64,000 bases of DNA, from IMG/VR virus record IMGVR_UViG_3300042975_000096; one strand, given 5' to 3'. The notes beneath the pieces are model-generated. The model searched no databases. It saw only the letters and a program-made list of their open reading frames with translations, and was not told where the DNA came from. Numbering within the stretch: position 1 is the stretch's first letter; every line of letters starts with the position of its first letter. The DNA comes from a virus. Lineage: Duplodnaviria; Caudoviricetes. Shown here piece by piece: positions 9,759-51,561 of the stretch. The translations under genes were made by a program, and so were the position numbers.

Positions 9759-9789
9759 ATTTCAATTCACGCACCCGTATGGGTGCGAC
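9759..9789 (-). CRISPR. Solitary type I-C-like repeat, no leader, intergenic within an operon
   Basis: GTCGCACCCATACGGGTGCGTGAATTGAAAT, identical to array repeats. Confidence 0.9.
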
Positions 9790-9809
9790 ATAAAGCGTGT
9801 AATGGGAAA

Positions 9810-9959
9810 TTATTTCAATTCAGTTTCAACGATTTTGAAATCCAGTTTCATTTCTTCATCCTGCAAAAGCATTTTCTTTGTTACATTCATTGTAAACAAA
9901 ACATTATCTTTTCCTTTTGCTTTAATTACATTTTTAATTTCACTCCAAGTAATAAACAT
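9810..9959 (-). CDS. 49-aa hypothetical protein (MFITWSEIKNVIK...)
   Basis: Promoter and RBS GGGGGGAG; below ORF-track cutoff. Confidence 0.65.
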   Translation of the reverse strand: MFITWSEIKNVIKAKGKDNVLFTMNVTKKMLLQDEEMKLDFKIVETELK

Positions 9960-10121
9960 TTATAACTCCCCCCTTTCTTTAACTCATACTTAACTCTTAT
10001 ACTATAATACCACAGTATTAAATAATTGTCAACACATTTTTTATTTTATATATTTCTAAATATTCTGAAAACAATACGATGGATAAAAAATACAGGTCTA
10101 TCGTATAGACCTGTATCGATA

Positions 10122-10700
10122 TTATTCTTCTTCCAACTTATTGAGTTCTTCAAGCATAGCTTCTTCTGTCAATTTTTTAATTTCATTGAATGTATAAACT
10201 TTAATCAAGGTGCAACCGTAATACTCGTGATTTTCATCTTTTGATACACTCGCATAACGACCTTGATTGCTTTCCTTAGTGTTGAACCCTGTATATACTT
10301 CAAGGGTATTATCGTCAAGATTGATAATGTATCCCCATTCACAAAATAACGAATCATAAATGAAATTGTTACTGTTAATGTAATACGGCAATTTGTTTAC
10401 AATGTATGCAACAAGATTTCCCTGTGCTTCTCTTAATGCAACGTACCATGATTCTGAATCACATTTAGACATTTCATGACGATAATTATAAGCAAGCTCT
10501 TTAAGCTCATTTTTTGTCGGCTTTTTATCTTCGTCAACAGCCGTCATCCTATCAAATGCGCTTTTCATATCTTCCACTTTATACTCTTTGATTGCTTCAA
10601 AAACCTCTTTGCCTAAATAAGTTGGGTAGGAATCACCATGATTATACATAAGTTTATCTTCGTTATTTTTTCTAAAACCCCATACGCCACGTGTACTCAT
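10122..10700 (-). CDS. Hypothetical phage protein, paralog of 21507..22085
   Basis: Shared WGFRK..DKL.YN and DS..C.W.YIINLD.N.LE.Y.GF. Confidence 0.85.
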   Translation of the reverse strand: MSTRGVWGFRKNNEDKLMYNHGDSYPTYLGKEVFEAIKEYKVEDMKSAFDRMTAVDEDKKPTKNELKELAYNYRHEMSKCDSESWYVALREAQGNLVAYIVNKLPYYINSNNFIYDSLFCEWGYIINLDDNTLEVYTGFNTKESNQGRYASVSKDENHEYYGCTLIKVYTFNEIKKLTEEAMLEELNKLEEE

Positions 10701-10902
10701 TTCAAAAGCCCCTTTTCTTTAACTCTTTTATTAACTCTATACATATAATAACACAACTTTAGTTCTTTGTCAATAGTTTTTTAAAAATATTTTATCTATA
10801 TTTTTCAGACTATTATGAAACTATTTATAGGCAAAATAAAAAGGGGTTTCCCCCTATTTATTAAAGCCCGAAAACCTTTCCCCAATCAAGTGTAGCCACA
10901 GC

Positions 10903-10998
10903 ATTTCAATTCACGCACCCGTATGGGTGCGACTAATGCCTGAAATTAGATTGACTCTATATCAGGTATTTCAATTCACGCACCCGTATGGGTGCGAC
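10903..10998 (-). CRISPR. Type I-C mini-array 1: two 31-nt repeats, one 34-nt spacer, then a ~40-nt tail and terminator
   Basis: Repeats 10903-10933 and 10968-10998; spacer 10934-10967. Confidence 0.92.
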
Positions 10999-11198
10999 AG
11001 CACACATGCCAAAGCCTTGCTACGCAAGGGTTGAAATGGCACTTTGTGCGAACCCCTTAATATTTTACGAATTTCGTTGACACGCCCACATGAAAATGCG
11101 TATGAACCCTGTAAAACAAAGGGGTGCGAAGCACCTAGCGTTTTTCTGTTCACTTATGCTTCGCACTTATTATAACATTATGTTTGTTATTTTGTCAA
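10999..11198 (-). promoter_or_regulatory. CRISPR leader plus sigmaA promoter (copy 1 of 4)
   Basis: GTGCGAAGCA..TGCTTCGCAC and GGGGTTCGCAC motifs; -10 11169-11174, -35 11193-11198. Confidence 0.85.
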
Positions 11199-11457
11199 GT
11201 GCTTTTTTTACATTCATTTTCAGACAATTATGAAATACTATAATAAGAATGTATTTTTTTCAAAGATAATTTTTTCTACCTTCAATAACACTTTTTTGTG
11301 TTCCCATGTATATTTAATATGCTCTTTATTTTTAATCATATATACCTCCATTCCTTCTTGTAATTACCCACATTGGTTTTTATATCAATGTGGGTAAAAC
11401 TTATATATATTATATTATAAATGCCCTCACAATTGATTTACCGGCTTTTGACAGATA

Positions 11458-11733
11458 TTAATCCCAATCAATATCTGTCAAATCTCCAAAATTAACACTC
11501 TGTATATACTTGTTTGCTTCTTCGTCAGAATTAGCTTCAACAGTAACATATCCATTTACCTCTAATGTAAGAACGCCATCCTCCAAACTGATAGGAGTTC
11601 CTTCAATATTATACATTTCTGAACCGCAATCAATTTCAGATATTACATCGCACATATCATTCATAACAGTTGCGATATTTTTATATTCTGTATTAAGCTC
11701 AATGAATCCCGTTACGGTTTTTGTAATTTCCAT
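11458..11733 (-). CDS. Acidic hypothetical protein
   Basis: RBS AAGGGGT. Confidence 0.75.
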   Translation of the reverse strand: MEITKTVTGFIELNTEYKNIATVMNDMCDVISEIDCGSEMYNIEGTPISLEDGVLTLEVNGYVTVEANSDEEANKYIQSVNFGDLTDIDWD

Positions 11734-11748
11734 TTTAGTTACCCCTTT

Positions 11749-11961
11749 TCATTTCTTTGTATAATCATGTGCACCTTCACAAGTACACCATTTCTCATGA
11801 CATTTAGTGCGTTTACCAGACCTCAACAATGTACTCGCAACCGTTACTTTATTGCCACAATCGCATTCACAATCATACTTCACCACCATATTTGTTGAAG
11901 CCTTTTCATTTTTACAAATAACTCGCAAATGTCCGTACCGTTTGTTAATCAGATTCAGCAT
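11749..11961 (-). CDS. Stand-alone CxCxCG Zn-binding domain protein
   Basis: KRYGHLRVI...YDCECDCGN...LRSG, resembling N-terminal modules of HNH/AP2 homing endonucleases. Confidence 0.65.
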   Translation of the reverse strand: MLNLINKRYGHLRVICKNEKASTNMVVKYDCECDCGNKVTVASTLLRSGKRTKCHEKWCTCEGAHDYTKK

Positions 11962-11989
11962 TTTTTTACCTTTATTATCGCTTGTGGAT

Positions 11990-12196
11990 TTACGTCCTAT
12001 CCTCACAACCACATGAATGACAACCATTATTTAACTGTCCTGTTGTTCTATACACCATATTACCACATTTGCACTTACAAAGCCATAGTGCGTGTTTACC
12101 TCTATTCCCTGCACGTTGAATAACTTTCAGACTGCCAAATTCACGTCCTTTTAAATGTGCAACATTATGGTCATACATTATAACTTTCGCACTCAT
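11990..12196 (-). CDS. Stand-alone CxCxCG Zn-binding domain protein
   Basis: GREFGSLKVI...WLCKCKCGN...SCGC. Confidence 0.7.
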   Translation of the reverse strand: MSAKVIMYDHNVAHLKGREFGSLKVIQRAGNRGKHALWLCKCKCGNMVYRTTGQLNNGCHSCGCEDRT

Positions 12197-12343
12197 TTCA
12201 AATCACCCTCTCTATTATTATAATACCATATATATCTTTATTTGTCAACTATTTTTTAATGTTTTGTTTTGGGATGATATTTAGAATAGTTTGAAAACTT
12301 ATAGCAGACAATAATAAAAGAGGGGATTTCTCCCCCCTTAATG

Positions 12344-12922
12344 TTAATCATCCAAATCCAAAATTTCCTGCAATTCGTCTGGTACGTCAATCGAACCGCT
12401 CAAATCAATTACCCTATCTGCAATATCGTCAATCGCTTCAACCAGCTCATGCTCAATATCATACGAACTTACAGAATGGAGATTCCCATAAGCATTGAAG
12501 TGGAAATATTCATCCGTAGTGGCATTGAATCCGTCACCATAATTAATCATATTTGCAATATCTGTTGGCGTTTTCCCTTCCATAATCGAATCAAATTCAC
12601 TCATATCAATATAATCATAATCATCCATAGAACCGTCGTAGCTATTGATTTCACAAACAATTCCCTGCAAAGAATCGTGATTATCGTTCAGCCATTCAAT
12701 TACCGCCTCACGAATATCTGGCGTTGCTACAATATCATTATTGTGCTCTTCATCGCTGAACTCATGATATTCAATAGCTTCATCCAACGTATAACCGTTA
12801 TCGTCGCAATCCTCATCCATAACCTCAAAGAATTTCTTAAACTGTTCTTTAAGCTCATCCTCATTCATACGTACTTCTTTAGCTTCACCATTCGTAGTAA
12901 CCTTTACATTGTAATTCATCAT
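12344..12922 (-). CDS. Very acidic protein, related to 63602..64000
   Basis: D/E-rich; M.EFD..M.G...F...DEYF.FN.YG.L.S motif. Confidence 0.85.
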   Translation of the reverse strand: MMNYNVKVTTNGEAKEVRMNEDELKEQFKKFFEVMDEDCDDNGYTLDEAIEYHEFSDEEHNNDIVATPDIREAVIEWLNDNHDSLQGIVCEINSYDGSMDDYDYIDMSEFDSIMEGKTPTDIANMINYGDGFNATTDEYFHFNAYGNLHSVSSYDIEHELVEAIDDIADRVIDLSGSIDVPDELQEILDLDD

Positions 12923-13128
12923 TTCAAAAACCCCTTTTCTTTGTTTAACTCTCTCTTAACTCTGTTTATATAATACCACACAATATTATAAATGTCAACA
13001 ACTTTTTAAACTTTTTTATTGGATTTTTTAATGCATATACCTTCCCATTGTTTTATAATATTCTGAAATATTTTACCTCTAAAAAAACAGGACTTGTATG
13101 TTGGCAACAAGTCCTGTTTCCTATCGTT

Positions 13129-13458
13129 TTACTGCACCGTTTCATTCAGCATTTTAATGAAATCAACACATGCATTAACGCTACCTTCGCCTTTATATGA
13201 ATCAATAAGAATTGATTCAATTGAACATCCTGCTGGTAAAAAGCTCTCATCTTTTTCAAGTAAAAAGCCATATCCTACCCATTCATTTTCAACCAAATTC
13301 AGTGTATTGATAAGTGAACTGTTTTCAACAGGATAAAGGTATACAACCAAAGAATCATTTTCCACTCTCACTTCAATAGAAGCAAGTTCTTTAGAGATGG
13401 ATTTGTTTATATTGATACGAATAAGTTTTGCTAACAGTTCAAATTGTACGTTCGTCAT
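13129..13458 (-). CDS. Hypothetical protein, paralog of 8163..8522
   Basis: Shared motifs. Confidence 0.8.
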   Translation of the reverse strand: MTNVQFELLAKLIRININKSISKELASIEVRVENDSLVVYLYPVENSSLINTLNLVENEWVGYGFLLEKDESFLPAGCSIESILIDSYKGEGSVNACVDFIKMLNETVQ

Positions 13459-13637
13459 TTTAGATTACCCCTTCCGCAACTCTCTCTTAACTCTGATATA
13501 ATAATACCACAGTTCTTGTTATTTGTCAAGATATTTTTTAATAAATTGGTTAGCTAATTATTGCTAAATATTCTGAAATATTTTAGGGATAAAAATTAAG
13601 AGGTCTATATATAGACCTCTTAATTACACTTGTTTAG

Positions 13638-14000
13638 TTATTCCCACTCTCGACCAATTTCAACAACAGTTTCTTTGCCATCGCCGTTCTTACTCTCGAT
13701 TCTATACTCAATACCGTTTGGTATTTCAACAACCTTCAAACGACTTGATTTCATACTTGCTTTTTCTCCTAGTTTTTCAACAACTGAAACCATTTTTTTG
13801 TCAGTACGATAATATTCTGTAATATACGGAATATGATTCTTGTCTGCCATTTCATAGAATCCTTGAAAATCGTCTGGTACTTCCTGTCGATTATGAAAAA
13901 ATTTAACATCCTCAATTCCCTTTAGTTTCAGAATTTCTTTCATAGCCAAAACACTAAGACAAAAACATCCACCCGGTTTTGAATTAATAACAAGTTTCAT
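13638..14000 (-). CDS. Hypothetical phage protein
   Basis: KLVIN..GG.F.LS...VVEKLG..AS...LKVVEIP pattern. Confidence 0.8.
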   Translation of the reverse strand: MKLVINSKPGGCFCLSVLAMKEILKLKGIEDVKFFHNRQEVPDDFQGFYEMADKNHIPYITEYYRTDKKMVSVVEKLGEKASMKSSRLKVVEIPNGIEYRIESKNGDGKETVVEIGREWE

Positions 14001-14015
14001 TTGTATAACCCTCTC

Positions 14016-14258
14016 TCATTTCTGTATCATAGGATAGATTTTTGCAAACCTATCTGCCATTTCTTGATTCCAAATATATAGCATTACATGTGGGGAAATA
14101 TGTTCTTCCCTAAAATCTGGGAAAAACAGCTCAAAATATTCTCTACAAATACCTGCTAACTGTCCTGTCTTGTTATATTCTTCTAATTCATAATAACCCT
14201 TCATAATATCTTCAATCGGAAGTTTTCCTAAAATTTCTTTCATGTTCTCATTTTTCAT
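14016..14258 (-). CDS. Hypothetical protein
   Basis: Promoter and RBS. Confidence 0.75.
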   Translation of the reverse strand: MKNENMKEILGKLPIEDIMKGYYELEEYNKTGQLAGICREYFELFFPDFREEHISPHVMLYIWNQEMADRFAKIYPMIQK

Positions 14259-14318
14259 GCTATTTCCCTCTTTCAGTTATTATAATATCATGAATTAATG
14301 TTTTTGTCAATATGTTTT

Positions 14319-14732
14319 TTAATAATTTAATTCTTCTTTTGCAAACCCTTCATCCGTGGAATAATAAATGGTTTTTATTCCTACTTGCTTAATCATTGTC
14401 AAACAAGCCTTACAAGGTCTTGCAAGTGAAGGTTTACCGTGCTTGTACCGATATACATATATTTCTGCTTTTGTTAAATCATAGTCCATAGCTTTAATAA
14501 TACATGCCATTTCTGCATGAGTTGAATTTCGACACCTGTCTACGAATCTATTTTCGCCCCATCGAACCAAATTATATTTTGCTTGTAATGGGTGTGATTT
14601 TTTCAAATTCGGACTAACAGCAACAATATCTTTATTCAGTACAAGGATTGCCCCTATTTTTACTCTATCAAATTCAGACGTAAGACTTACTTCTTTTGCT
14701 ATGTTAAAATATCGCGCTTCTCTATTATTCAT
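14319..14732 (-). CDS. Cytidine/deoxycytidylate deaminase-family protein
   Basis: HAE and PCxxC Zn motifs. Confidence 0.9.
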   Translation of the reverse strand: MNNREARYFNIAKEVSLTSEFDRVKIGAILVLNKDIVAVSPNLKKSHPLQAKYNLVRWGENRFVDRCRNSTHAEMACIIKAMDYDLTKAEIYVYRYKHGKPSLARPCKACLTMIKQVGIKTIYYSTDEGFAKEELNY

Positions 14733-15083
14733 TGTTTTCCCTCTTTACTATCTATACTATAATTATATAGAATAAATAATAATTTGTCAACCATATTTTA
14801 ACACAATTATATTTCAGAATATTTTGAAATATGAACATATACAATAAAAAAGCAAGGGATTTTCCTTGCTTTTTGTATGACAAAAAATCATTTTTCTTTA
14901 TTGTAAATCGAACGAATAATTGTTTTCATGATTCCATTATCATGGTCATGGTTACAACTATATTGCATATATGGTTTACCCTCTTTATATACAATGTATC
15001 TACAACTAGAGCCATTTGTTTCATGAATAACTAAATATCCATTATGCACACATTTACCATATCTTATCATTATTTTTTCTCCA

Positions 15084-15284
15084 TTATCGATACAACTCAT
15101 TCAGTTCGTCAATTTTCAAAAGGCTTACACGCAAAAGGTGATTGTAATTCTTTGCTTTTGCATTTTCATAATATTCATCAATTTCTTCTTCGGATTTTCC
15201 TTCTTTTTTCATGGCATTTGCAACGTAGCCCATAACACAAAATGCATTACCGTCAACCCCTACCAAACTGTACTTTTCGTCCAT
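15084..15284 (-). CDS. Hypothetical protein, paralog of 15845..16066
   Basis: KYSLVGVDGNAF.VMGYV.NAM..EGK.EEE. Confidence 0.8.
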   Translation of the reverse strand: MDEKYSLVGVDGNAFCVMGYVANAMKKEGKSEEEIDEYYENAKAKNYNHLLRVSLLKIDELNELYR

Positions 15285-15500
15285 TGTTATTGCCCCTTTT
15301 CTTTAATAAACTATTTTTTCTCTATGGTTATATAATACCACTTTATTAGCTTTATGTCAATAGTTTTTGAAAAAAATTTCTGTTTTTTTAAGATTAAATA
15401 TTATAGAAATCAATAAACCGAAACAATTTCAGAATATTATAAAATAATATGATTTGATAAAAAACATGAAAGGTATATATACCTTTCATGTTTTTATTAT

Positions 15501-15812
15501 TCAGAAACCATCTTTTAAAACTTCGTTCATAGCTTGTGTAGGAGTTCCACTATATAAATTGTTATTCGCAATACTTTCTAAATTAATTTCTACATCACGA
15601 TTTACTTTTTTCCCATCAATTTCAATCCAACTATTTCCACAACCAATGTTGCCAAAACTTTTTATCATTTCAGTTCTATGCTCCATAAGCTTTTTTGTAG
15701 CAAGCAAAAGATTTCTTCCGCTAGTCTTATTCCAGCAATATTTTTCTTTAATCTCTCCACCGCCTTGGCTTGCATAGATACCACTATCAAGTCTGGTCAT
15801 AATTTTAATCAT
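15501..15812 (-). CDS. Hypothetical protein
   Basis: RBS GAGGGG. Confidence 0.75.
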   Translation of the reverse strand: MIKIMTRLDSGIYASQGGGEIKEKYCWNKTSGRNLLLATKKLMEHRTEMIKSFGNIGCGNSWIEIDGKKVNRDVEINLESIANNNLYSGTPTQAMNEVLKDGF

Positions 15813-15844
15813 TTCTTTTCCCCCTCATTACTCTCACATATTAT

Positions 15845-16066
15845 TTATTTTGTCAATAAGTTTTTATCTTTAATTTCCTCATTTAATGTGTTAATTTCAC
15901 TAAAACAAGAAGCTATAAAATTATCACGGCTTGTTGCCATTGCACATTCATAAAAATAATGTACTTCTTCTTCTGTTTTTCCTTCCGCTCTCATAGCATT
16001 TTGAACATAACATACCATTTTTGCAACATCGCCATACACACTATCTAAATTATATTTCCCTTTCAT
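15845..16066 (-). CDS. Hypothetical protein, paralog of 15084..15284
   Basis: Shared motif. Confidence 0.75.
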   Translation of the reverse strand: MKGKYNLDSVYGDVAKMVCYVQNAMRAEGKTEEEVHYFYECAMATSRDNFIASCFSEINTLNEEIKDKNLLTK

Positions 16067-16214
16067 AATATACTCCTTTTTGCTCTTTTTCTCTATGGTT
16101 ATATAATATCATAAATAATTTATTTTGTCAACATGTTTTTTAAATTTATATTTTAGAATATTCTGAAACATTATATAAAAAAGAAGTGATAAAACATACC
16201 ACTTCTCTCAACAA

Positions 16215-16574
16215 TCAATCTCCATCCCAAACCCCATCTGGGCGCATTTTAGCCATAGCTAGTAGTTGAATCAATGGTCTTTTGGCATTTCCTTCAGTTG
16301 CGTGCCAATAATCGTCATCGTCAACATCGTCTTTCAATTTTGCAATGGCTGATTCTAAAATAGGAATGGAATCTGCACCGGTTTTCCCATAAATAGAACG
16401 AATACCATCCTCGCCCATAACGTCATAATAATACTTGCTATAATTCCATGTAATATTCAACGTTAATTCTTTTGTGCCACCTATAGCATAAGTGCCACCT
16501 CTCATAAAATGATTTTCTTCTAGTTCCAATGTTTTTTTTGAAACTGGGTCAATTAAATCAATGCTATAACTCAT
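16215..16574 (-). CDS. Hypothetical phage protein
   Basis: NITWNY...YWHATEGNAK..RPDGVW; RBS GAGGTG. Confidence 0.85.
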   Translation of the reverse strand: MSYSIDLIDPVSKKTLELEENHFMRGGTYAIGGTKELTLNITWNYSKYYYDVMGEDGIRSIYGKTGADSIPILESAIAKLKDDVDDDDYWHATEGNAKRPLIQLLAMAKMRPDGVWDGD

Positions 16575-16735
16575 ATTAAATCACCTCATATATTATTTTG
16601 ATGTATATTTTTTTGGTTTTCCATTTTCGTCTAATACATTGCCGCCAATAATATAACCTGCGCCATTTCCTGTAGCTATGGAAGTTATATAATATTCATA
16701 TTTTGTGTCTTTATCAGCAACAATATAATGGTTCT

Positions 16736-18235
16736 CTGCTTTCCAAAACATAGACAAACATGGACATGTAAAATTTATCCATATTTATATTAATGTCTAA
16801 ATTTTTTAATTACTTTCGTCACCATTTGTATTCTGATATCAATTATTTAATACCACATTGACAAACTCTTAAAGTTTAAGGCGTAAGCCACGCCCTTTAC
16901 TAATAAATGAATTAATTAATTAATTCATTTATTAGTTAGCTAAAGCTAATAGATTCATTACTGCGTTATAATCTCTATCTGCGGTGAACCCACACTTATA
17001 ACATATATATTCATTATGTTTTGTTTTATGTCTTTTATTGCCTGACAAAGTGATTTTATCTTCACCTGTTTTTACATGTCCACAACAAGAACATCTTTGA
17101 GTTGATGGGTAAAATCTATCAGCTATAATTAACTTTTTTCCATACCAATTACATTTATATGTAAGCAGTTGTCTAAATAAACCAAAACACGACCTTTGCA
17201 AGCCTTTTGATGCTACATGTGTCATTTGCATATGTTTCACATCTAAATCTTCTATTACTATTGTATCATATTTATCTGTTAGCATAGTTGTGAATTTATG
17301 TAAAATATCATGGGTTAAGTTGCTTGCTTTTTCATAATCACGTTGAAGTTTGGTTCTCACTTTTAAGTAATTATTACTCTTGCAAGCGTTTTTCCCTTTT
17401 ATTATATGCTTTTTCGCTAACATTTTTTGATAATGTTTGATACGATTATAATAAAAGTTTAATTTCTTGGGTAAAACATTCAAATTACCATCAGTGTAAT
17501 TAAAATGACCTACATTTACATCTATTGCTGTTTTTTTATTTGTTAAAACTTTTGTTTCAACACTGGTTTTATAAGGTAATGAAGCATAATATTTATTATT
17601 GACTTTAGTCACACTAACTACTGTTAAATCGGCATCAAAATTTTTTGGTAAACCTTTGATTTTAATATTTTGCCATTTTTCTTGAATTTCTCTAGGCTTA
17701 TCTAATTTTAATTTACCATTTTTAATTGTAATTCTATCTGATTTGAAACCTTGTTTTGTATCTTTTTTGGTTTTGAATTTAGGTTTTCCCCAATCAAGCT
17801 GAGATTTGCTTAAAAAATGATTCCAAGCATTTCCCAAATCTAAAATTGCTTGTTGTAAAATTCTTGAAGAATATTTATATTGCCAATCTTGTTTATTTTC
17901 AACAAGTTCATTTCTTACAACACGTTCGTTAGGTGCTTTGTAAGATTTATCGATACAATGTAAATCATACATTTGATTCCATGTTTCTAAACCTTGATTC
18001 CAACAATATCTGCGATAGTCGCAAAGATTATCTAAAACCTGTTTCATATGTTTGCTTGGATAAAGTTTTACTTTGATGGTCTTTATTGTTTTCAATTATT
18101 TATTTTCCCCCCTTTTTTAAGTATATTTGAGTACACTTGCTTCTATAAATTAAATTAAATTATTTGTGGATAAATGTGTTTATGAGTATATTTTTATATG
18201 TTTGAACACATTTGTCTATATTTTTAGTTACTTAA
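16736..18235 (-). mobile_element. Non-autonomous tnpB-only IS607-like element
   Basis: AG dinucleotide at both junctions, subterminal ATAGACAAA/TTTGTCTAT motifs, no transposase. Confidence 0.75.
16932..18095 (-). CDS. tnpB: TnpB RNA-guided endonuclease
   Basis: RuvC AIDVN, IEDL, DRDYNA and CSCCG/CYKCG Zn finger. Confidence 0.93.
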   Translation of the reverse strand: MKTIKTIKVKLYPSKHMKQVLDNLCDYRRYCWNQGLETWNQMYDLHCIDKSYKAPNERVVRNELVENKQDWQYKYSSRILQQAILDLGNAWNHFLSKSQLDWGKPKFKTKKDTKQGFKSDRITIKNGKLKLDKPREIQEKWQNIKIKGLPKNFDADLTVVSVTKVNNKYYASLPYKTSVETKVLTNKKTAIDVNVGHFNYTDGNLNVLPKKLNFYYNRIKHYQKMLAKKHIIKGKNACKSNNYLKVRTKLQRDYEKASNLTHDILHKFTTMLTDKYDTIVIEDLDVKHMQMTHVASKGLQRSCFGLFRQLLTYKCNWYGKKLIIADRFYPSTQRCSCCGHVKTGEDKITLSGNKRHKTKHNEYICYKCGFTADRDYNAVMNLLALAN

Positions 18236-35672: not shown

Positions 35673-35838
35673 TGTTAAAACCTCCTAATGTGTTGTTATC
35701 TCAATCTCTGTAATTATAATATCATATATTAGTTGTTTTGTCAATGTTTTTAAAAGTATTTTAACCATACAATTATCAAATTTTATAATATTCTGAAATA
35801 TTTTAGAGATAAAAAAACAAGAGGGATTATCCCTCTTG

Positions 35839-41466: not shown

Positions 41467-41486
41467 TTTAATTTCCTTCTTTCACT

Positions 41487-41732: not shown

Positions 41733-41812
41733 TTTTAATTCCCTCTTTCATTTTATCTCTCTCAATCTCTATAATTATAATATCACACTCTTATATATTT
41801 GTCAACACTTTT

Positions 41813-42043: not shown

Positions 42044-42215
42044 TTTAATTCTCTCTTTCATTTCTCTCTTAACTCTATATTTATAATACCATACTTATAT
42101 ATATTTGTCAATATGTTTTTAAAATACTTTATTTTATAATATTCTGAAATATTATATCGACAAAAACAACAAAGGGCGATATAACAATACCACTCTTTTT
42201 GTTAATCATTAGCAC

Positions 42216-42605: not shown

Positions 42606-42887
42606 TTGAAAAAACCCCTTTTCTTTTTTCACCTTAACTCTATTTATATAATACCATACTTTTATATATTTGTCAATAAATTTAAACAAAAAAGCAAGCA
42701 TACGTCAAAAATGCTTGCTTTTTTTTAGATATATGATTTTTTGGAGGAACAAAAAATGCACATTGTTATTATATGATGTTTTCCATTATTTGTCAATAAT
42801 TATTTTTGTAAAAATAATTTCAGAATATTATAAAATAATTATATCAAACAAATAAAAAGGAAGGTAACATTACCTCCCTTTTTTTAT

Positions 42888-43376
42888 TTACCAACCATAT
42901 ACTTCAGCTACATGCTTCTCAATGGATTTTGTATAGTAATTAATCATAGCACGACTTACAGGTTCATCATTGTACAATTTGTCTAACAGGTTTTGAATGT
43001 TACGATTCGGACGAATCTCACGATATTCAACATAGCTCGTTCCATCGTGTCCATATAACGTTGCTTTAATATTATAGCCGTCTGAATACCATTCAGCACC
43101 TTCACCATCACCATACAGAATATCTTGAATATTACCGCTTTCAATGATTTTATAACCTGTTTTACGACCATTCCAACGACCAATATCAGCAATGGCAAGA
43201 ATGTCATTTTCAAGCTGAATATCCAAATTTAGCCGTTCATCCTCTAATGCCATATCGTTCATATCATTGGCAATTCCATACATTTCACTTTCGTTTGTAA
43301 CGTCTGGATATTCTTCTTCAAAAAACTCTTTGTAATCCTCTAAATCAATATCGCTACTCCATATAACTTTTTTCAT
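42888..43376 (-). CDS. Acidic phage protein (IAD.G.WNGR..GYK, HDGT)
   Basis: Standard unit. Confidence 0.85.
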   Translation of the reverse strand: MKKVIWSSDIDLEDYKEFFEEEYPDVTNESEMYGIANDMNDMALEDERLNLDIQLENDILAIADIGRWNGRKTGYKIIESGNIQDILYGDGEGAEWYSDGYNIKATLYGHDGTSYVEYREIRPNRNIQNLLDKLYNDEPVSRAMINYYTKSIEKHVAEVYGW

Positions 43377-43563
43377 TTTAATTACCTCTTTCTTTTAACT
43401 TGTTTTTCTCTCAATCTCTATAATTATAATACCATACTTTTATATGTTTGTCAACAAGTTTTTAAAATTAATTTTAATCCAGATACATACATCATTTTCA
43501 GATTATTTTGAAATATTATAGGGGATAAATTAAAAAGCAGGTAACAGTTACCTGCTTTTACAA

Positions 43564-43776
43564 TTAATAGCTATAGAAATTATACATGTGTTCTTCAAAA
43601 TCCGCATGTGCTTTTTGTGTATACTGTTCAGCTTCGTCAAACGTAGGAAAAAAACCTTTTCCCCAAAAACTTTTTACCAATCTTATGTTTTCTTTGGTAA
43701 CTATCAGTGATTCCGTATCACCAACTAATCCACCACTCTCATAAATCGTCATGCCAATTTTAATCATATATAACAC
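43564..43776 (-). CDS. Hypothetical protein
   Basis: Operon context. Confidence 0.65.
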   Translation of the reverse strand: MLYMIKIGMTIYESGGLVGDTESLIVTKENIRLVKSFWGKGFFPTFDEAEQYTQKAHADFEEHMYNFYSY

Positions 43777-43806
43777 ATCCTTCTATTAGTTTATTGTAAA
43801 AACGCT

Positions 43807-44025
43807 TTAATACTGTCGTTCAACAGGATAGTATGTGATATTATGCCGTTTATTCAGCAGTTTGCTAATCATTTTTTCACAGGCATTAATATCTCCCAAT
43901 TTCATTCCCGGATATTTATTGAGATAATTGTTATAATCTGCACATCCACCTTTTGACAGTTCTTCAAAATTAATATCAATAAATTTAATCAAACTCTCTT
44001 TTGTAATACTGTTTATTTCGTTCAT
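43807..44025 (-). CDS. Hypothetical protein
   Basis: Coupled to upstream gene. Confidence 0.65.
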   Translation of the reverse strand: MNEINSITKESLIKFIDINFEELSKGGCADYNNYLNKYPGMKLGDINACEKMISKLLNKRHNITYYPVERQY

Positions 44026-44264
44026 TATATAATATCCTTTTCGCTAACCAATTCGCTCTGCTTAAACATTTTAAGCTCTGATACACACGAGTTCGTTACT
44101 TCGCGAGTAAAATATACAATATCACCGCTAATGATTTCTGCATCCGTGATTCGATAACTCTTGCCTGTCAATGCGTGTTCTACAATATCACCTTGTGCAT
44201 ATTGCGAAACACATGTAAAGATATATTTTCCTGCCTTATTTACGCCATTACTTTTTACAATCAT
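44025..44264 (-). CDS. Hypothetical protein
   Basis: Standard unit. Confidence 0.7.
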   Translation of the reverse strand: MIVKSNGVNKAGKYIFTCVSQYAQGDIVEHALTGKSYRITDAEIISGDIVYFTREVTNSCVSELKMFKQSELVSEKDII

Positions 44265-44583
44265 TTTAGTTACCTCTTTCGTTTGTTCTACCTCTTTATC
44301 TCTACTATTATAGTATCATAAATTATAATATTTGTCAACAGTTTTTTAAAATACTTTACTTGCCTGTTTTTAATTATTCTGAAAATAATAATCCCAATAA
44401 AAAAAGCAGGATTTACCTGCCTTTTCGTTCGTGCTTTTCAAAAATCAAATTTGGCTTTATAACCGCCTAGAACGCCGCACATTACATTTTTTCAACTTAT
44501 GTATGTGTTTATACCAATACGCACATTAAACTTAATGTGTGGCTTTATAAACGGTTATAAAGCGTTTTTAGTTAATGCATTGC

Positions 44584-44862
44584 TCACCGTACATTATTAA
44601 AGAAATCATTTCGGATTAATTTATAATCATATTTCGCCCTGTCATGTGTATATTTTGTATCACCATAATTAACCCATTCGTCATTGCTAACCGTCAAACA
44701 ACACGTATATGGATATGTCGTTTCGTTTTCATCCCATTTATCTACAACGAATACGCGATTGTTAATCCGTACATACATGCCATAATCCTTTGACATTAAT
44801 TTCCGATACACAATTTTACCATGTGGCAACATAATTGGGAACTTCTCTTTTGTCATATTCAT
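44584..44862 (-). CDS. Hypothetical protein
   Basis: Standard unit. Confidence 0.7.
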   Translation of the reverse strand: MNMTKEKFPIMLPHGKIVYRKLMSKDYGMYVRINNRVFVVDKWDENETTYPYTCCLTVSNDEWVNYGDTKYTHDRAKYDYKLIRNDFFNNVR

Positions 44863-45347
44863 ATTAACGCCCTCTTTTCTTCTCTCTTAACTCTAATATT
44901 ATAATAACATATTTTATTATATTTGTCAACAGTATTTTTCAAAATATGCAATTGCTTTATATCGCGTTATAACGCCATATAACGTGTCTTTTTCATTTTG
45001 CATATAATCATACCTATTGCGCCATACAATTTAATGTGGGGCTTTTTAAGGGCTTATAAAGGCAATTACCTACATCATGACTTCTACACATAATGGTTTT
45101 TAGACTATTTTGAAAACGTAGTAGCAGTAATAAAAAAATCGCACTCTATATAGAGTGCGATAATGTTATATGATTTTCACGACTTCAGGTCTTGCTGAAA
45201 AGTGCAATAGTAGTTTTACGACTTCCATAAGTGGCATATCCGTAAAACATCCTTCTTGTTTTGCTCTCATTGCTTCGTTAATCATAAACCCATATATGAT
45301 TAACGATAAATCTCTGTCACTGATTTTTTCCATTTTATTAAGTCCTT

Positions 45348-45683
45348 TCATACTTCTTTATTTAATGCCGTTTCCATTTCCAATACTAACAATTCTCTGA
45401 ATCCTTCACCCGTCGTGCTATCACTTTTGCACTGAACAAGGAAATTTCTTCTAAGGCACGGGGTTATTGTAAATCGTACATTACAACGTTCTTTTTTCGG
45501 TTTGGTTATGTCAAAAACAATATCGATAATCAATTCATTTTCTGTTGATTCCTTATCTAATTTTGCGCCTTTGAATGGAAGTTTTGACATAACTTTAACT
45601 ATCTGCTTATTCCACTCTGGTTCATAATCACTGTTCGTTGGTTTGTAATGAATTAACTCTGCAGGCTATTGATACATTTTCAT
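45348..45683 (-). pseudogene. Gene with an in-frame TAG at codon 6 (45666-45668)
   Basis: RBS GAAGGGG-ATG AAA ATG TAT CAA TAG CCT... continues in frame into MSKLPFKG. Confidence 0.6.
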
Positions 45684-45777
45684 AATACTATCGCCCCTTC
45701 AATCAACCTCTCTTTAACTCTTATTATATAATATCATATTTTATCTCATTTGTCAATACTTTTTAAAATTAAACTAA

Positions 45778-46167
45778 TCATAATATTGGAATTAATTTTT
45801 TGAATATTTCATTCCCATTTGAATCAACTGAACTTATAAAGGAACTGTCATGCCGTTGATGCCATCGCTTTATATCTGCTTTTGTTTTTTCACGAGCGAT
45901 TACACAATCGTTATATTTCGTTTTGCAATCACATTGTATTTGTGATAACGGTATTGTTCCATATATGGTTCTGCAACAATGTTGACATAATTCGGTTGGA
46001 TATGTCGGTAATGGATTAAATACTCCGCTTATATTCTGTTCATTAATTTTCATTAATGTATTATCTTTTTGTATCAATAATCCACCATCTTGATATTTGT
46101 GCATGACATAATACCATTCAGATTTTTTTGCCGTATATTCTTTCATGGTTACATACATTTGCTTCAC
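45778..46167 (-). CDS. Cys-rich hypothetical protein
   Basis: 129 aa ORF. Confidence 0.6.
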   Translation of the reverse strand: MKQMYVTMKEYTAKKSEWYYVMHKYQDGGLLIQKDNTLMKINEQNISGVFNPLPTYPTELCQHCCRTIYGTIPLSQIQCDCKTKYNDCVIAREKTKADIKRWHQRHDSSFISSVDSNGNEIFKKLIPIL

Positions 46168-46242
46168 TCTTTTCTTCGTTGATAAATACGCTTATAGAAA
46201 AGTGTATTTGAAAAAGTGGACGATAATTGTAATATATAAATA

Positions 46243-46524
46243 TTATTTCTTATAGACTAAAAAATTATCTTTTGCTTTTTGTGCTAAAGATTCTAAAATT
46301 GATTCGTTAAATTTATATGGAGAATATAATGTAGTAACGTATGCTTGATTAACATTTACATGCTGTCGAATATTATCAAAATGCCTATTCACATACTTCA
46401 TTGGCGTGATTGTATATGTAATCTTGTCATTTTTAATATCCACAAATACATCCATATAATTATTTTGCCATAAATGTTCAGCTTGATTGAGAATTTCTTT
46501 TACACCTTCTATCATATTAATCAC
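46243..46524 (-). CDS. Hypothetical protein
   Basis: RBS AAGGTG, no sigmaA promoter. Confidence 0.7.
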   Translation of the reverse strand: MINMIEGVKEILNQAEHLWQNNYMDVFVDIKNDKITYTITPMKYVNRHFDNIRQHVNVNQAYVTTLYSPYKFNESILESLAQKAKDNFLVYKK

Positions 46525-46650
46525 CTTATTATTTAAGATACTAATATAATATTTTAAATATAGCTCAAAATTGTTATGATGGCAGAGAAAAGAAGTAGGT
46601 ATGTTTTTATTTTGACCGTTTATTTTTTTACAACAAAAAACAGATAGAAA

Positions 46651-46905
46651 TTAATATGCTATCTGCTTCAATAATAAATTTAATGAATTAAACGTTTCCT
46701 GTTCATCAACACCACTTATAGATACAAGAAATAAATCATTTTCTTTTATGCATAAGGAACATAATCCCAAAATGCTATTTGTATCTGCTTTGTTGTCATT
46801 TTGATAGAATGTAATTTTTGATTTAGAATACTTTGTGTTCAATACAATTTTTGCACAATTCCTAAAACAAACATATTCTTTAGCCGTATAAAATTTATTA
46901 ACCAA
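46651..46905 (-). CDS. HPr-like protein lacking His15
   Basis: SKITF...KADTNSILGL.SL.I...D...VSISG.DEQE matches the HPr Ser46 region; no GLHARP. Confidence 0.75.
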   Translation of the reverse strand: MVNKFYTAKEYVCFRNCAKIVLNTKYSKSKITFYQNDNKADTNSILGLCSLCIKENDLFLVSISGVDEQETFNSLNLLLKQIAY

Positions 46906-47033
46906 AATAATCCCTCCATGTTTTATATTATACCATATATATACAAAGTGTCAAGCACATTTATAATGTTTCAGAATATTTAGAAATAACATAGGATGAA
47001 TAAAATAGGTGAGGGATTTCTCCCCCACCTTCT

Positions 47034-47477
47034 TTACTCAATCGTGCCAAACTTGCTTTTGAACGTTACCGTCTTATAGCTTACAAGCTTCTCATACGCT
47101 TCAGCAGGAATCACACCTTCTTTGATATACTTCTTGATTTGCGTATTGTCAATATCGTATACCGTATGACGTTTAATCAGCTTTTTATCCTCCAAACCAC
47201 AAGCTTCAAGCAGGACTTTAAGCTGTTTTACGTCAACTTCTTTATCACGACGAACCGTCACCTTTTCCATGAAATACTCATAGCCTTCAAGCAATTCTTT
47301 AACGTCGGCAGGAAGGACATAACGTGCTTCAAGCTTGACCTTCTTTTCGTCGAGCTTTGCCTTTTCTTCCTTGATTTTTTTATCAAGGGCAAGAAAATCT
47401 TTGATTTCCTTGTCAAGTGCCATTTTCGTCAATTTCTCTACCTGTGCCATTTTTTCCATTTTTGCTGTTGTTGCCAT
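47034..47477 (-). CDS. Hypothetical coiled-coil protein
   Basis: Standard unit. Confidence 0.85.
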   Translation of the reverse strand: MATTAKMEKMAQVEKLTKMALDKEIKDFLALDKKIKEEKAKLDEKKVKLEARYVLPADVKELLEGYEYFMEKVTVRRDKEVDVKQLKVLLEACGLEDKKLIKRHTVYDIDNTQIKKYIKEGVIPAEAYEKLVSYKTVTFKSKFGTIE

Positions 47478-47563
47478 TTTAATTACCCCTTTTCTTTTTG
47501 TTTAACTCATTCTTAACTCTATATATATAATACCATATTCTTTGAAGTTTGTCAACAGTTTTT

Positions 47564-47866
47564 TTAACTAAATTCAAATTTTGTTTTGAGCTGATTATCT
47601 TTATAAAACAATATGCAATCGTCTTTTATCATAAATGAATCGTATGTGTAATCGTAAATCTGAACTTCCTTATATTGTTTGCAATTTCTCAAAAACAACA
47701 TATTCACTTCTTTATACTTTTCAAGTTCATCATTAATATTGTTAATTTCAGAAAAGCTAACGTTGGAAATTCCTAAATAAACCCTGCCGATAAAATTCAC
47801 GTCCTTCTGATTTTTGTATTTATTGTAAACATACTTGACCAGTTCTTTAAGATTTTCTTGATTCAT
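47564..47866 (-). CDS. Hypothetical protein
   Basis: Standard unit. Confidence 0.7.
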   Translation of the reverse strand: MNQENLKELVKYVYNKYKNQKDVNFIGRVYLGISNVSFSEINNINDELEKYKEVNMLFLRNCKQYKEVQIYDYTYDSFMIKDDCILFYKDNQLKTKFEFS

Positions 47867-48032
47867 TTTCTATTCCCACCTTTTTCTTAACTCCCTTAAC
47901 CTATAATTAATTATATATCATAGTATGTAATTTGTCAACAAGTTTTTAAAATTTATTAATCATAGTCTATTTTAGAATAGTCTGAATTATTTTGTGGGAT
48001 AAAAAATAGAGGGAATATATTCCCTCTATTTA

Positions 48033-48713
48033 TCAGCTTGCCTTTGCCATACTAAGTGACAGCAACCTTAATTCGTGCTTTCCTAAATACTTCTTGCACT
48101 TCTCAAAATCATTAGGAAATACTTTTGCGATTGGTTTAATATAATCAAATTCGCTTTTTTCAATTAATTCCCTTACGAATTTAGCAAGTGATGTAATTTT
48201 CATTTTCTTTGTTTTAGTCATGCATTGCTGGCTAATTGCGATAAATAATCCCAATGTATTGATTTGCGGTTTTACACAAAATGTACTTTTGGATGTGTTT
48301 TTGGTTTTTTTCGGCATTTCTACTGGTTCTGAAATCATTTTTCTTATGACAATATGATAACCAAATTCCTTTTTTGAATTGATATACCGCATTACCTTTT
48401 TAAAATTTACGCCATGGTCAAAACAACCAGTAAGCGTATGGATTAACTCATGCATGATTACATTGCGACGTTCACGCTCATTAAAATACAGATATTTTCT
48501 TGAAAAACAAATTTGCATAGTTTTAACAAAAACATCACGATGACATTTACCAACAGCACAACGTGTGTTAATCATATATACATGTTTAATAAGACGGAAA
48601 TCTTTATCACGCATAGCCGAAAAATCTATATTCATTCTCTCAAAATCTTTGATACATTCAAGCATTATTTTTGTTAGTGCTTTATTTTCTTCATAAATTA
48701 CTACCATTTTCAA
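48033..48713 (-). CDS. SprT-like Zn metalloprotease
   Basis: VIMHELIH...CFDHG..F. Confidence 0.75.
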   Translation of the reverse strand: MKMVVIYEENKALTKIMLECIKDFERMNIDFSAMRDKDFRLIKHVYMINTRCAVGKCHRDVFVKTMQICFSRKYLYFNERERRNVIMHELIHTLTGCFDHGVNFKKVMRYINSKKEFGYHIVIRKMISEPVEMPKKTKNTSKSTFCVKPQINTLGLFIAISQQCMTKTKKMKITSLAKFVRELIEKSEFDYIKPIAKVFPNDFEKCKKYLGKHELRLLSLSMAKAS

Positions 48714-48817
48714 AACCCCTTTTCATGTATCTCTCTCAATCTCTACTATTATAATATCATATTATTATATATTTGTCAATATGATTTTAAAAATAAAAAA
48801 GAGTGGATAATCCACTC

Positions 48818-49468
48818 TCATAGCCATGCTAATTCTTGTTTTGTTAAATATTTCAGACTACTCTGAAACTCTATAGGATATTCTTCTTCTAAAAACACTA
48901 TTTTATCTGAATTGTTTTCATTGATAGCTTCTCGAATCAAATTTTTGAATTTTGTTACTTTTACTTTTCCGCTTAGTGTTGAACAAAACAATTTGATGTA
49001 TGCTTTAAGCTCTCCCTCTTTATCTGTAGCTTTAGATAATATATTTATATCTTGATTATGCGCCATTGCTTTTGCATAGATTAATAAATCCTGCTTATTT
49101 GACGGCGTATAATTAACTGCTACATTATAATTCAAGTTATTATTGATATAATCCATGTGTTCTAAAAATGATGCTTCATGATTAAAGCATCCATTAAACG
49201 TATGGATTACCTCATGCATGATAATGTTTTCTTTTGTTGGTGAACTTAAATTCAAAAAACGTTTGGAATAATAGATTCTCATTGTTGAATTTTGTGGTTG
49301 CTTTTTACAACACGCAACAGAATTAACTGTATTGCAAAGATATATCTTTTTTGATAATGAAAAATCCTTATCCACCAGCTCATTGAACTCAAACCTTGAA
49401 TTATTAATGTCATTGATACATTTGTGTAATATCCCTGTTAATTCTTCATTGATAACCAATTGTTTCAT
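48818..49468 (-). CDS. SprT-like Zn metalloprotease, tandem paralog, transcribed behind mini-array 3
   Basis: IIMHEVIH...CFNHE..F. Confidence 0.75.
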   Translation of the reverse strand: MKQLVINEELTGILHKCINDINNSRFEFNELVDKDFSLSKKIYLCNTVNSVACCKKQPQNSTMRIYYSKRFLNLSSPTKENIIMHEVIHTFNGCFNHEASFLEHMDYINNNLNYNVAVNYTPSNKQDLLIYAKAMAHNQDINILSKATDKEGELKAYIKLFCSTLSGKVKVTKFKNLIREAINENNSDKIVFLEEEYPIEFQSSLKYLTKQELAWL

Positions 49469-49496
49469 TTATTAAGGACACCTCATTTTATTTATT

Positions 49497-49591
49497 TGTT
49501 GTACTCACGCACCCGTATGGGTGCGACTACAAAAAACACTTAAAGCACTTAGAAAAACAGATTTCAATTCACGCACCCGTATGGGTGCGAC
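49497..49591 (-). CRISPR. Mini-array 3: repeat 49561-49591, 33-nt spacer, 3'-degenerate terminal repeat 49497-49527
   Basis: Terminal copy ends GTGAGTACAACA instead of GTGAATTGAAAT. Confidence 0.9.
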
Positions 49592-49791
49592 AGCACACAT
49601 GCCAAAGCCTTGCTATGCAAGGGTTGAAATGGCACTTTGTGCGAACCCCTAATCATTTTACAAAATTCGTTGACATTTCCCCATGTAAACCTCAATGAAC
49701 CTTGTAAAACAAAGGGGTGCGAAGCACCTAGTGTTTTTCTGTTCACTTATGCTTCGCACTTATTATAGCATTTTACTTATTCATTTGTCAA
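49592..49791 (-). promoter_or_regulatory. CRISPR leader plus promoter (copy 3)
   Basis: Homologous leader; -10 49762-49767, -35 49786-49791. Confidence 0.85.
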
Positions 49792-49794
49792 GCA

Positions 49795-50037
49795 TTAATG
49801 TACCCACAATTCAACGCTTGCATCCCAATGATAACCAAAATCTGTTGCAAGCATTTCTAATAATGTTGTCGGTACGTCGTTATCAATGATTGGATTATAT
49901 AACGGGAAACCATTTTGATGCAGAAATAACTGCATACCAAAATCCGTTAGAAAATTTGTTCCTGTAAAATTTTTTACCCATTCTTCATATTCAGCCTGTT
50001 TTTTCTTCAATTCTGTTTTCAATGTTGACTGCTTCAT
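49795..50037 (-). CDS. Hypothetical protein
   Basis: Standard unit. Confidence 0.75.
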   Translation of the reverse strand: MKQSTLKTELKKKQAEYEEWVKNFTGTNFLTDFGMQLFLHQNGFPLYNPIIDNDVPTTLLEMLATDFGYHWDASVELWVH

Positions 50038-50174
50038 TTATAATTCCCTCTTTCATTTAATTCTTCTCTCAATCTCTATAATTATAATACCATATTTATA
50101 TATATTTGTCAACACTTTTTTAAAATAATTATTTTGAAATATTCTGAAAACATTTTGAATAAAAAAAGAGGATG

Positions 50175-51125
50175 TTAATCCTCTTTTAAATCCTCTATTG
50201 ATTCCACAGTGCCAATGTTCTTAAATAATAGCTCAATAATCTTATTGCGCACTTCTTCGCTGATTCTGCCACCAGAAGCTTGTTGATGCCCACCACCATT
50301 AAAGGCAATTGCAAAAGGTGTTGTATCAATGCCACTTGAACGTAAAGATACAAAACCATCGTCTAAATTAAACATAATTGCCATATCAGAATCATTATTC
50401 ATATGGCATAATTTATTACCTAAAACAGACTGGTATCTGTCCGCAAAAGATACGGCAATCGATTGATTATTAACAACAATTCGTTTTGCTGATTTTGTTT
50501 TGTTTTCCACGAATTTGTTAATTGTATCTTGCTCATGATTTAACAATTCTCGTTCGGATTGATTAAAAATCGTTAGTTCATTAATATCTGTTTTTTTCAA
50601 TCGGTCTGTAAAAGTATCAACGAAATTTGATATTCCCAAAATATAAACAACATCATTTAAATATTTTGGCAACTGACTATTTTGTTTTGACCAATCCCAT
50701 GTATCATATAATCTAACCTGTTCAACAAAATACGGTCTAGGTGTAATCATACCCTTTTTAATCAAAAAGTCATGCCACAACTCCGTACCACAAGTCAAGT
50801 TTCCCTTTTCATTTTCAACTGAAACTTTTGCCCACGGGAATTCATTTAATCCCACAGCCGTTTTGTGATGGTCAAACAATGAAACATTTTTATGTTTTTC
50901 AATTAACGCAAACAATTCCTTTTTGTCTGAAGGAATAGAACAATCTGTAATATACACTTTGTTATAATTATAGATTTTTTTATATTCATATGCATAAAAC
51001 AATTTTTCTGCAACGTCATTAGGGCTACTGCAATATTCGATTTCAATATCATTTTTAAATGCAAGTTTGGCTAATATTGCGCAACCAAGACCATCTAAAT
51101 CATTATGTGTAATTAATTTATACAT
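50175..51125 (-). CDS. DHH/DHHA1 phosphoesterase (nanoRNase-like), transcribed behind mini-array 4
   Basis: HNDLDG, ITD, FDHH, GGGH..ASG motifs. Confidence 0.9.
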   Translation of the reverse strand: MYKLITHNDLDGLGCAILAKLAFKNDIEIEYCSSPNDVAEKLFYAYEYKKIYNYNKVYITDCSIPSDKKELFALIEKHKNVSLFDHHKTAVGLNEFPWAKVSVENEKGNLTCGTELWHDFLIKKGMITPRPYFVEQVRLYDTWDWSKQNSQLPKYLNDVVYILGISNFVDTFTDRLKKTDINELTIFNQSERELLNHEQDTINKFVENKTKSAKRIVVNNQSIAVSFADRYQSVLGNKLCHMNNDSDMAIMFNLDDGFVSLRSSGIDTTPFAIAFNGGGHQQASGGRISEEVRNKIIELLFKNIGTVESIEDLKED

Positions 51126-51159
51126 TCACATTTCACCTTTTTCTATATTATTTGTTTTT

Positions 51160-51361
51160 TATTGCACTCACGCACCCGTATGGGTGCGACAAAACGCAAA
51201 TTTCAATTCACGCACCCGTATAGGGTGCGACTCACTGTTTTGTTATTTTTCATTCTTACACTAATATTTCAATTCACGCACCCGTATAGGGTGCGACTTC
51301 CGTATCTGTCCATGGTCTCGCCCCACTGTATTTCAATTCACGCACCCGTATAGGGTGCGAC
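51160..51361 (-). CRISPR. Mini-array 4: three 32-nt repeats plus a degenerate terminal repeat; spacers of 32, 34 and 9 nt
   Basis: Repeats 51330-51361, 51266-51297, 51200-51231, 51160-51190. Confidence 0.93.
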
Positions 51362-51561
51362 AGCACACATGCCAAAGCCTTGCTACGCAAGGGATGAAAT
51401 GGCACTTTGTGCGAACCCCTTAATGTTTTACAAAATTCGTTTACATTTTATCGCCTAAATATAGAAGAACCCTGTAAAACAAAGGGGTGCGAAGCACCTA
51501 GTGTTTTTCTGTTCACTTATGCTTCGCACTTATTATAGCATTTTACTTATTCATTTGTCAA
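51362..51561 (-). promoter_or_regulatory. CRISPR leader plus promoter (copy 4)
   Basis: Homologous leader; -10 51532-51537, -35 51556-51561. Confidence 0.85.

Follow-up and report, generated by a model that had tools for sequence, protein, structure and literature searches.

What are repeats of the CRISPR type doing at six separate places in a phage region without cas genes? We address this question for a stretch of 64,000 nucleotides (nt), here called the window, from the Caudoviricetes record IMGVR_UViG_3300042975_000096 of IMG/VR. A sequence-only reading of this DNA had described four loci with a promoter, a leader and repeats (cassettes A to D below) and two solitary repeats without a leader. 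Our analysis shows that every cassette joins a perfect promoter of the sigma-70 type to the upstream edge of a complete type I-C leader, with one to three repeats behind it. We conclude, with a probability of roughly 0.6, that the cassettes are genuine type I-C arrays on a phage of ~430 kb that are competent for adaptation and are run by Cas proteins of the host.

We counted the repeats in several ways, and the claim that six loci carry a common repeat held up. The 3′ part of the repeat, 16 nt long, has ten exact matches on the minus strand and none on the plus strand; with up to three mismatches there are 14 matches, where shuffles predict 1.4. A regular expression for the whole repeat returns 11 copies of 31-32 nt, all on the minus strand: two in cassette A, one in B, one plus a degenerate terminal copy in C, three plus a degenerate terminal copy in D, and the two solitary ones. 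The spacer positions given earlier stand, and the locus positions given with them are just the low-coordinate ends of minus-strand arrays.

The repeat has the properties of a type I-C repeat: a length of ~32 nt, a GTCGCxC start, a stem-loop and a 3′ end reading ATTGAAA(T/C). The same repeat type is found in the arrays of 45 bacterial loci, many of them from Bacillota. In Ruminococcus turbiniformis (comparison locus L024) the genes cas5d-csd1-cas7 are followed immediately by an array with this repeat and leader type, which upholds the type I-C assignment also made earlier from the letters of the window. Repeat stems covary between strains (CCC/GGG versus CTC/GAG), and the hairpin of the terminal repeats is kept in every strain compared. 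Rfam has no family for either leader or repeats. Two unrelated viral contigs of IMG/VR with 46-48% guanine-cytosine (GC) content (L003, 2149-2181; L005, ~9241-9273) also hold a solitary type I-C-like repeat, which ends GTGCGTGAATTGAAAT and lies in the same conserved context in both. In L005 the repeat begins GTTGCAC, not GTCGCAC. These are solitary repeat units of another phage lineage.

Between the -35 box and the first repeat the four cassettes are 78-89% identical and make up a single direct-repeat family of 253 nt, which supports the earlier inference that a promoter-leader-repeat unit has been amplified. Each promoter is a perfect 12/12 match to TTGACA-18-TATAAT with a TG ahead of the -10 box, and the leader, counted from the likely start site up to the first repeat, measures ~165 nt; promoter plus leader span ~230 bp. 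The earlier description of four loci, each with its own sigmaA promoter and a homologous leader of this length, is thus confirmed. All four lie on the minus strand. Cassette A (11198-10841) consists of a promoter (11198-11169), a 43-nt leader motif (11166-11124), further leader to 10999, a repeat (10998-10968), a 34-nt spacer (10967-10934) and a second repeat (10933-10903), followed by a 42-nt tail (10902-10861) and a terminator (10855-10841). Cassette B (19732-19433) has its promoter at 19732-19703, then the leader, and a repeat at 19532-19501 whose stem reads CCTC/GAGG in place of CCC/GGG. Cassette C (49791-49497) carries a promoter (49791-49762), the leader, a repeat (49591-49561), a 33-nt spacer (49560-49528) and a terminal repeat (49527-49497) with an intact hairpin and an altered 3′ end. 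Cassette D (51561-51160) is the longest: behind the promoter (51561-51532) and leader, three repeats (51361-51330, 51297-51266 and 51231-51200) enclose spacers of 32 nt (51329-51298) and 34 nt (51265-51232), and a 9-nt mini-spacer (51199-51191) precedes a terminal repeat (51190-51160) that keeps its hairpin and has an altered 3′ end.

What follows the last repeat had been taken for three different downstream architectures, and as designs these dissolve on comparison. The tail of cassette A is a remnant of a 59-amino-acid (aa) gene: it comprises the final 13 codons, with the breakpoint at the repeat end, and other strains have this gene intact. Cassette B is not a bare repeat; a 32-nt spacer-like segment (19500-19469) follows, and then a decayed repeat that now serves as the terminator (19464-19433). 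Cassettes C and D simply run on into the following gene, with no terminator before the 216-aa gene at 49468-48818 in C or before the DHH phosphoesterase gene at 51125-50175 in D.

The phage leaders proved homologous to bacterial type I-C leaders, with the upstream motif at a fixed distance from the array. Each cassette contains a 43-nt element in which the inverted arms GTGCGAA and TTCGCAC flank a conserved AAGTGAACAGAAA core (minus strand; 11166-11124 in A, 19700-19658 in B, 49759-49717 in C and 51529-51487 in D). The element recurs in five bacterial loci (L024 761-803, L032 1656-1698, L008 1798-1839, L048 5603-5645 and L038 3592-3633). Its distance to the first repeat is 125-128 nt in the phage and 116-129 nt in these bacterial loci. 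Phage and bacterial leaders also share a TTCGCA(A/C)AA box near -70 and the junction GCT ahead of the repeat. Type I-C leaders are reported to contain, 100-200 bp upstream, motifs specific to the subtype that shape the integration complex (bioRxiv 10.1101/2023.05.26.542337), and the 43-nt element may be an already described type I-C leader motif. The bases beside its arms vary, in part in a compensating manner. Since the homology between cassettes starts exactly at the promoter, and the promoter abuts the 43-nt element, each copy comprises a promoter and one whole leader. Predictions give the leader RNA very high stability (z = -7.1) and three hairpins, and the copies are too alike for any covariation to show in them. 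A GGTGC-TTC-GCACC hairpin followed by a T-rich run scores terminator-like in every leader (minus strand; 11135-11123, 19669-19657, 49728-49716 and 51498-51486). It competes with a long 5′ hairpin, and an attenuator-like switch is conceivable.

We then compared strains of the phage. A metagenomic contig of 430,772 bp (Ga0527070_013 of JGI sample 3300051660) represents a strain ~98% identical to the window, and the same phage recurs across many JGI, ENA and Logan assemblies, JGI samples 3300045594-6 among them. The carrier is a very large (jumbo) phage with a genome of ~430 kb, apparently of a Gram-positive host. All four loci, A to D, vary among strains whose flanks are ~98-100% identical, so spacers turn over at one locus among close relatives, as they do in virus-borne mini-arrays. 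At locus C, contigs that encode an identical 216-aa downstream protein carry the spacer of the window, another single spacer (L069), two spacers (L070 and L071) or two others (L064). L070 and L071 have the trailer-end spacer in common and differ at the leader end, and further contigs keep just one or the other of the two L064 spacers. At locus B, the 430-kb relative has an additional leader-proximal spacer and repeat, and the window allele co-occurs in that sample. Locus A is found in four states: without the cassette; with a leader and one repeat, downstream of which an intact promoter and the intact 59-aa gene follow (L090); with a leader and single repeat and a deletion reaching into the 59-aa gene (L091 and L095); and with a leader-repeat-spacer-repeat unit that holds either of two different spacers (34 nt in the window, 36 nt in L056). 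Locus D of the co-occurring strain L064 differs in its three spacers, has a mini-spacer of 18 nt and contains repeats whose stem covaries.

Two further observations concern gain and loss of repeats among these strains. L058 carries an additional 33-nt repeat variant (997-1029) just after a gene at a place that corresponds to ~9019 of the window, where the window has no repeat; gain or loss of repeat units therefore extends to further sites. We considered contig L061 as a case of the 9759 repeat growing into an array and rejected it, as its last partial spacer is the start of a locus C spacer. L061 is probably a chimeric low-coverage assembly.

The spacers themselves are of type I-C size. Unique spacers of 32-34 nt separate the repeats in the window and of 32-36 nt in the relatives; all are distinct, as had been claimed for the window, and the short exceptions measure 9, 18 and 22 nt. 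Across the window and L056, L061, L064 and L069-L071 we collected 17 distinct full-length spacers (32-36 nt). Their mean GC content is 39%, compared with 30.6% for the phage, and 13 of the 17 begin with A. This bias may reflect a rule of protospacer selection, or a repeat that is one base longer than assumed. The earlier proposal to look up the spacers and a 5′-TTC protospacer adjacent motif (PAM) yielded neither target nor PAM. Spacers had no match, and no self match, in the window or in any relative or bacterial locus compared; blastn against GenBank phages gave chance matches only (E ≥ 0.1); seven patterns with every sixth base free found no target in IMG/VR; and in five candidate host genomes the repeats alone were matched. 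A Cracr-type seed (TTC plus 10 nt) is absent from 381 kb of type I-C-bearing loci, a set that does not include the true host locus. One 25-nt match between the window and L011, considered as a host spacer, was rejected because it lies inside a coding region.

As the sequence-only reading had stated, the window is without cas genes. Pfam and PADLOC searches assigned none of the 78 open reading frames (ORFs) of at least 85 aa in the 64-kb window to a type I Cas family, and no cas operon adjoins the arrays in the window. For Cas12f-type models, TnpB was the sole match in the window. One window ORF matched the PADLOC model Csx1, annotated as 'found elsewhere' (E = 2e-19). Gene tables of relatives, covering roughly 47 kb of which much overlaps the window, likewise show no cas gene.

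How could arrays without cas genes be filled and used? We propose that host RNA polymerase would transcribe the cassette and that host Cas5c would cleave at the base of each repeat hairpin. The resulting CRISPR RNAs (crRNAs) would load host Cascade and direct Cas3 to other genetic elements in the same cell, and new spacers would enter at the leader end through host Cas1-Cas2-Cas4. Acquisition at the leader end by host enzymes is suggested by an upstream motif that keeps its bacterial distance and by differences of precisely this kind among near-identical strains; a phased leader, polarised alleles and a ground state of a leader plus one repeat all fit acquisition by Cas1-Cas2-Cas4 of the host. 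The phage thus probably relies on host Cas proteins both to update and to use its arrays, and this use, which we infer from sequence comparison, gains weight from the leader homology and from spacer turnover in near-identical strains. A wider proposal is held more tentatively, at somewhat short of even odds: that this is a jumbo phage with a distributed, self-updating CRISPR memory that has no cas genes, is filled by host Cas1-Cas2-Cas4 and used by host Cascade-Cas3, and whose repeats also seed gene disruptions and deletions in the accessory region.

Several points weigh against host-run arrays. Expression and processing of the arrays are predictions, and no spacer yielded a protospacer from which to read target class or PAM. 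No host was found: no bacterial array compared has the identical repeat, the nearest differing by 1-3 nt, and an exact-repeat scan of JGI metagenome contigs returned a single bacterial array (54% GC) whose repeat differs by 1-2 nt. Several of the allele contigs are short and of low coverage, the probably chimeric L061 among them. Recombination with host arrays or between cassettes could be the source of the spacer differences. The survey for cas genes spans 64 kb of a ~430-kb genome, and cas genes encoded by the phage outside the window are possible.

The units might instead act as anti-CRISPR RNA, soaking up Cas5c and Cas7 in the manner of RNA anti-CRISPRs (Racrs) or guiding Cascade onto cas or toxin promoters in the manner of Cracrs, a reading that we consider unlikely. 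The cassettes would then shield the phage from type I-C immunity of the host and their spacer content would be secondary, which we likewise doubt. A perfect promoter on every cassette would suit such a role, as would the solitary repeats downstream of small genes in operons, an arrangement found in the validated RacrIC1 behind acrIC5 (PMC10651486); in that study a non-targeting crRNA alone reduced interference. Spacers of 9, 18 and 22 nt would give undersized complexes, the layout of cassette B (repeat, guide, terminator) resembles a described V-A Cracr, and the viral Cracr arrays reported so far include nine of type I-C with two spacers each (bioRxiv 10.1101/2024.10.29.618823). However, a decoy has no need of an adaptation leader, but every cassette retains the leader in full, phased motif included. 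Regulatory guides are expected to be conserved, whereas these spacers turn over between near-identical strains, and the TTC-plus-10-nt seed search described above found no match, with the true host locus outside the compared set. A decoy or regulatory role may coexist with arrays run by host Cas proteins, but it leaves leader conservation and spacer turnover unexplained.

That the ~430 kb encode a type I-C-like effector of the phage itself, perhaps with adaptation genes, and that the window holds its satellite arrays, appears decidedly improbable. Variant type I-C systems are described in huge phages (PMC7162821) and our survey spans 64 kb of the genome; however, neither the window nor the ~47 kb of gene tables from relatives holds a cas gene, and leader and repeat are of the ordinary bacterial type. 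We give still less credence to homologous recombination, with host arrays or among cassettes, as the maker of spacer diversity in arrays that are passengers or scars of little function. Such recombination was proposed earlier as the source of spacers in leaderless phage mini-arrays (PMC6858448), and the repeats are clear hot spots of recombination and deletion: the breakpoints of the cassette A tail and of the 9759 site fall at the repeat end, one of them with 8-nt microhomology. Against it stand the conservation of leader, hairpin and promoter over four cassettes and over strains, the polarised alleles, the existence of a leader-plus-single-repeat ground state, and the 13 of 17 spacers starting with A, which suggests a selection rule. 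Genuine arrays that depend on host Cas proteins remain our preferred explanation of the four cassettes.

The two solitary repeats have no leader and need a separate account. The repeat at 38550-38520 (minus strand) lies between two genes, one YqeY-like (39027-38587) and one of 272 aa (38486-37668); it is identical in 10 of 10 strains and is never expanded, with variation only just downstream. The repeat at 9789-9759 (minus strand) is preceded by a 22-nt segment (9811-9790) and by an 11-nt copy of the 3′ end of the repeat (9822-9812), an 11-mer that is found solely there and in nine full repeats. This 11-nt copy is the end of a truncated 49-aa ORF (9959-9810), and the gene concerned is intact in six other strains, where it encodes 94 aa. 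In place of 77 nt of this gene the window has 55 nt, made up of the final 3 nt of a repeat, the 22-nt segment and a full repeat, and the left junction shows the 8-nt microhomology TGAATTGA. The unit is not a clean insertion; it looks like the product of illegitimate recombination with a donor of repeat-short spacer-repeat structure. We rejected the alternative that a 53-bp deletion would restore an original 69-aa gene, as the ancestor encodes 94 aa and 77 nt were swapped for 55. At the two repeat-end breakpoints (10903/10902 and 9759/9758) the native sequence just to the left ends TTTT(C) (L057 and L090 for the former, L092 for the latter), which resembles the complement of the GAAAT end of the repeat; with two cases only, this may be chance.

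Both solitary repeats are full copies with intact hairpins and lie within operons, a promoter at 10032-10004 being ~240 nt upstream of the 9789-9759 repeat. At both sites a solitary repeat outside an array thus keeps its sequence and hairpin and is predicted to be transcribed, which are the features expected of a Racr. Most likely, the leaderless repeats are Cas5c-binding decoys like RacrIC1, RNA processing sites or neutral recombination scars.

A close precedent for the cassettes comes from the archaeal viruses SPV1 and SPV2, which carry leader-bearing mini-CRISPR arrays without cas genes (Medvedeva et al. 2019, PMC6858448) and for which reliance on Cas proteins of the host was proposed. Those arrays also have 1-2 spacers and a host-like leader containing a promoter, hold different spacers at the same locus in close relatives, and occur in viral genomes that lack cas genes and contain leaderless stand-alone repeats. 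The present case differs in that the carrier is a bacterial jumbo phage, the arrays are of type I-C and four cassettes lie within 64 kb; the leader edge bears a grafted bacterial promoter of consensus sequence, and two of the arrays double as the 5′ portion of mRNAs. SPV1, SPV2 and their relatives were shown to target one another, whereas the spacers of the window phage have no target match. Mini-arrays and solitary repeat units of phages, as reported by Faure et al. 2019 and summarised in PMC11656645 and PMC6858448, resemble ours in combining host-type repeat-spacer units and lone repeats in genomes without cas genes. According to that summary (PMC6858448) the phage mini-arrays are leaderless, in contrast to the window cassettes with their complete type I-C leader and upstream motif.

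The solitary repeats at 9759 and 38520 would be comparable to RacrIC1, a solitary type I-C repeat co-transcribed with the gene upstream (Camara-Wilpert et al. 2023, PMC10651486). Unlike RacrIC1, they are not adjacent to a known acr gene, their Racr activity is a prediction from their sequence, and the 9759 copy, which is polymorphic and replaces sequence inside a gene, could be a scar. Cracrs (Liu et al., bioRxiv 10.1101/2024.10.29.618823) include multiplexed viral mini-arrays, type I-C among them; their guides imitate host CreR/CreA and pair, through at least 9 PAM-proximal bases next to a PAM, with cas or creT promoters, whereas the guides of the window phage vary by strain and gave no such match in the 381 kb of type I-C-bearing loci, a set without the true host locus. 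Finally, the Cas-poor arrays of huge phages (Al-Shayeb et al. 2020, PMC7162821) are similarly compact, have host-like repeats and were proposed to use host Cas proteins. Those arrays lie beside cas genes, while here they are dispersed cassettes with a single promoter each; leader homology and strain-level turnover are shown here in addition.

The genomic surroundings are those of a phage with a GC content of 30.6% over the window, in which all genes lie on the same strand and each has its own promoter and terminator. PHROG-supported products include a CCA-adding enzyme, an RNA ligase, an RlaP nucleotidyltransferase and TnpB. GenBank phages yielded no close relative of the window and no match to the leader-plus-array cassette, and a 25-nt pattern across the leader-repeat junction had no match in IMG/VR. 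The TnpB gene (16932-18095) belongs to an IS200/IS605-type element, with an Rfam Transposase-1 RNA match directly downstream (16819-16874), and a separate ORF for an IS200-like Y1 transposase lies at ~1798-2199, a position inferred from the L056 gene table. A palindrome, TTTCAGAATATTCTGAAA, occurs in ~27 copies between a terminator and the following -35 box (e.g. 35780-35825 and 42131-42176; repeat families D10 and D13), and these palindromes look like overlapping CodY boxes. More than 30 promoters are followed, ahead of the ribosome-binding site, by a conserved 5′ untranslated stretch of the AGAGTTAAGAGAGAGTTAAA type (repeat family D1; e.g. 42613-42691).

In the earlier picture, mini-arrays of bacteriophages were leaderless and were suggested to obtain their spacers by recombination; here every cassette has a full adaptation leader, and natural populations of the phage show the allele pattern expected from spacer acquisition at the leader end. 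Because the phage is present in many public assemblies (JGI, ENA and Logan), predictions can be tested on existing read sets, and assays of type I-C adaptation could use the cassette as a compact leader-repeat unit from nature. If our reading is true, this phage would be a bacterial counterpart of the SPV1/SPV2 case, multiplied over the genome: a virus that owns a heritable, updatable immune memory for which the host supplies all enzymes. Models of phage-phage competition and of the "ownership" of host CRISPR systems would then change.

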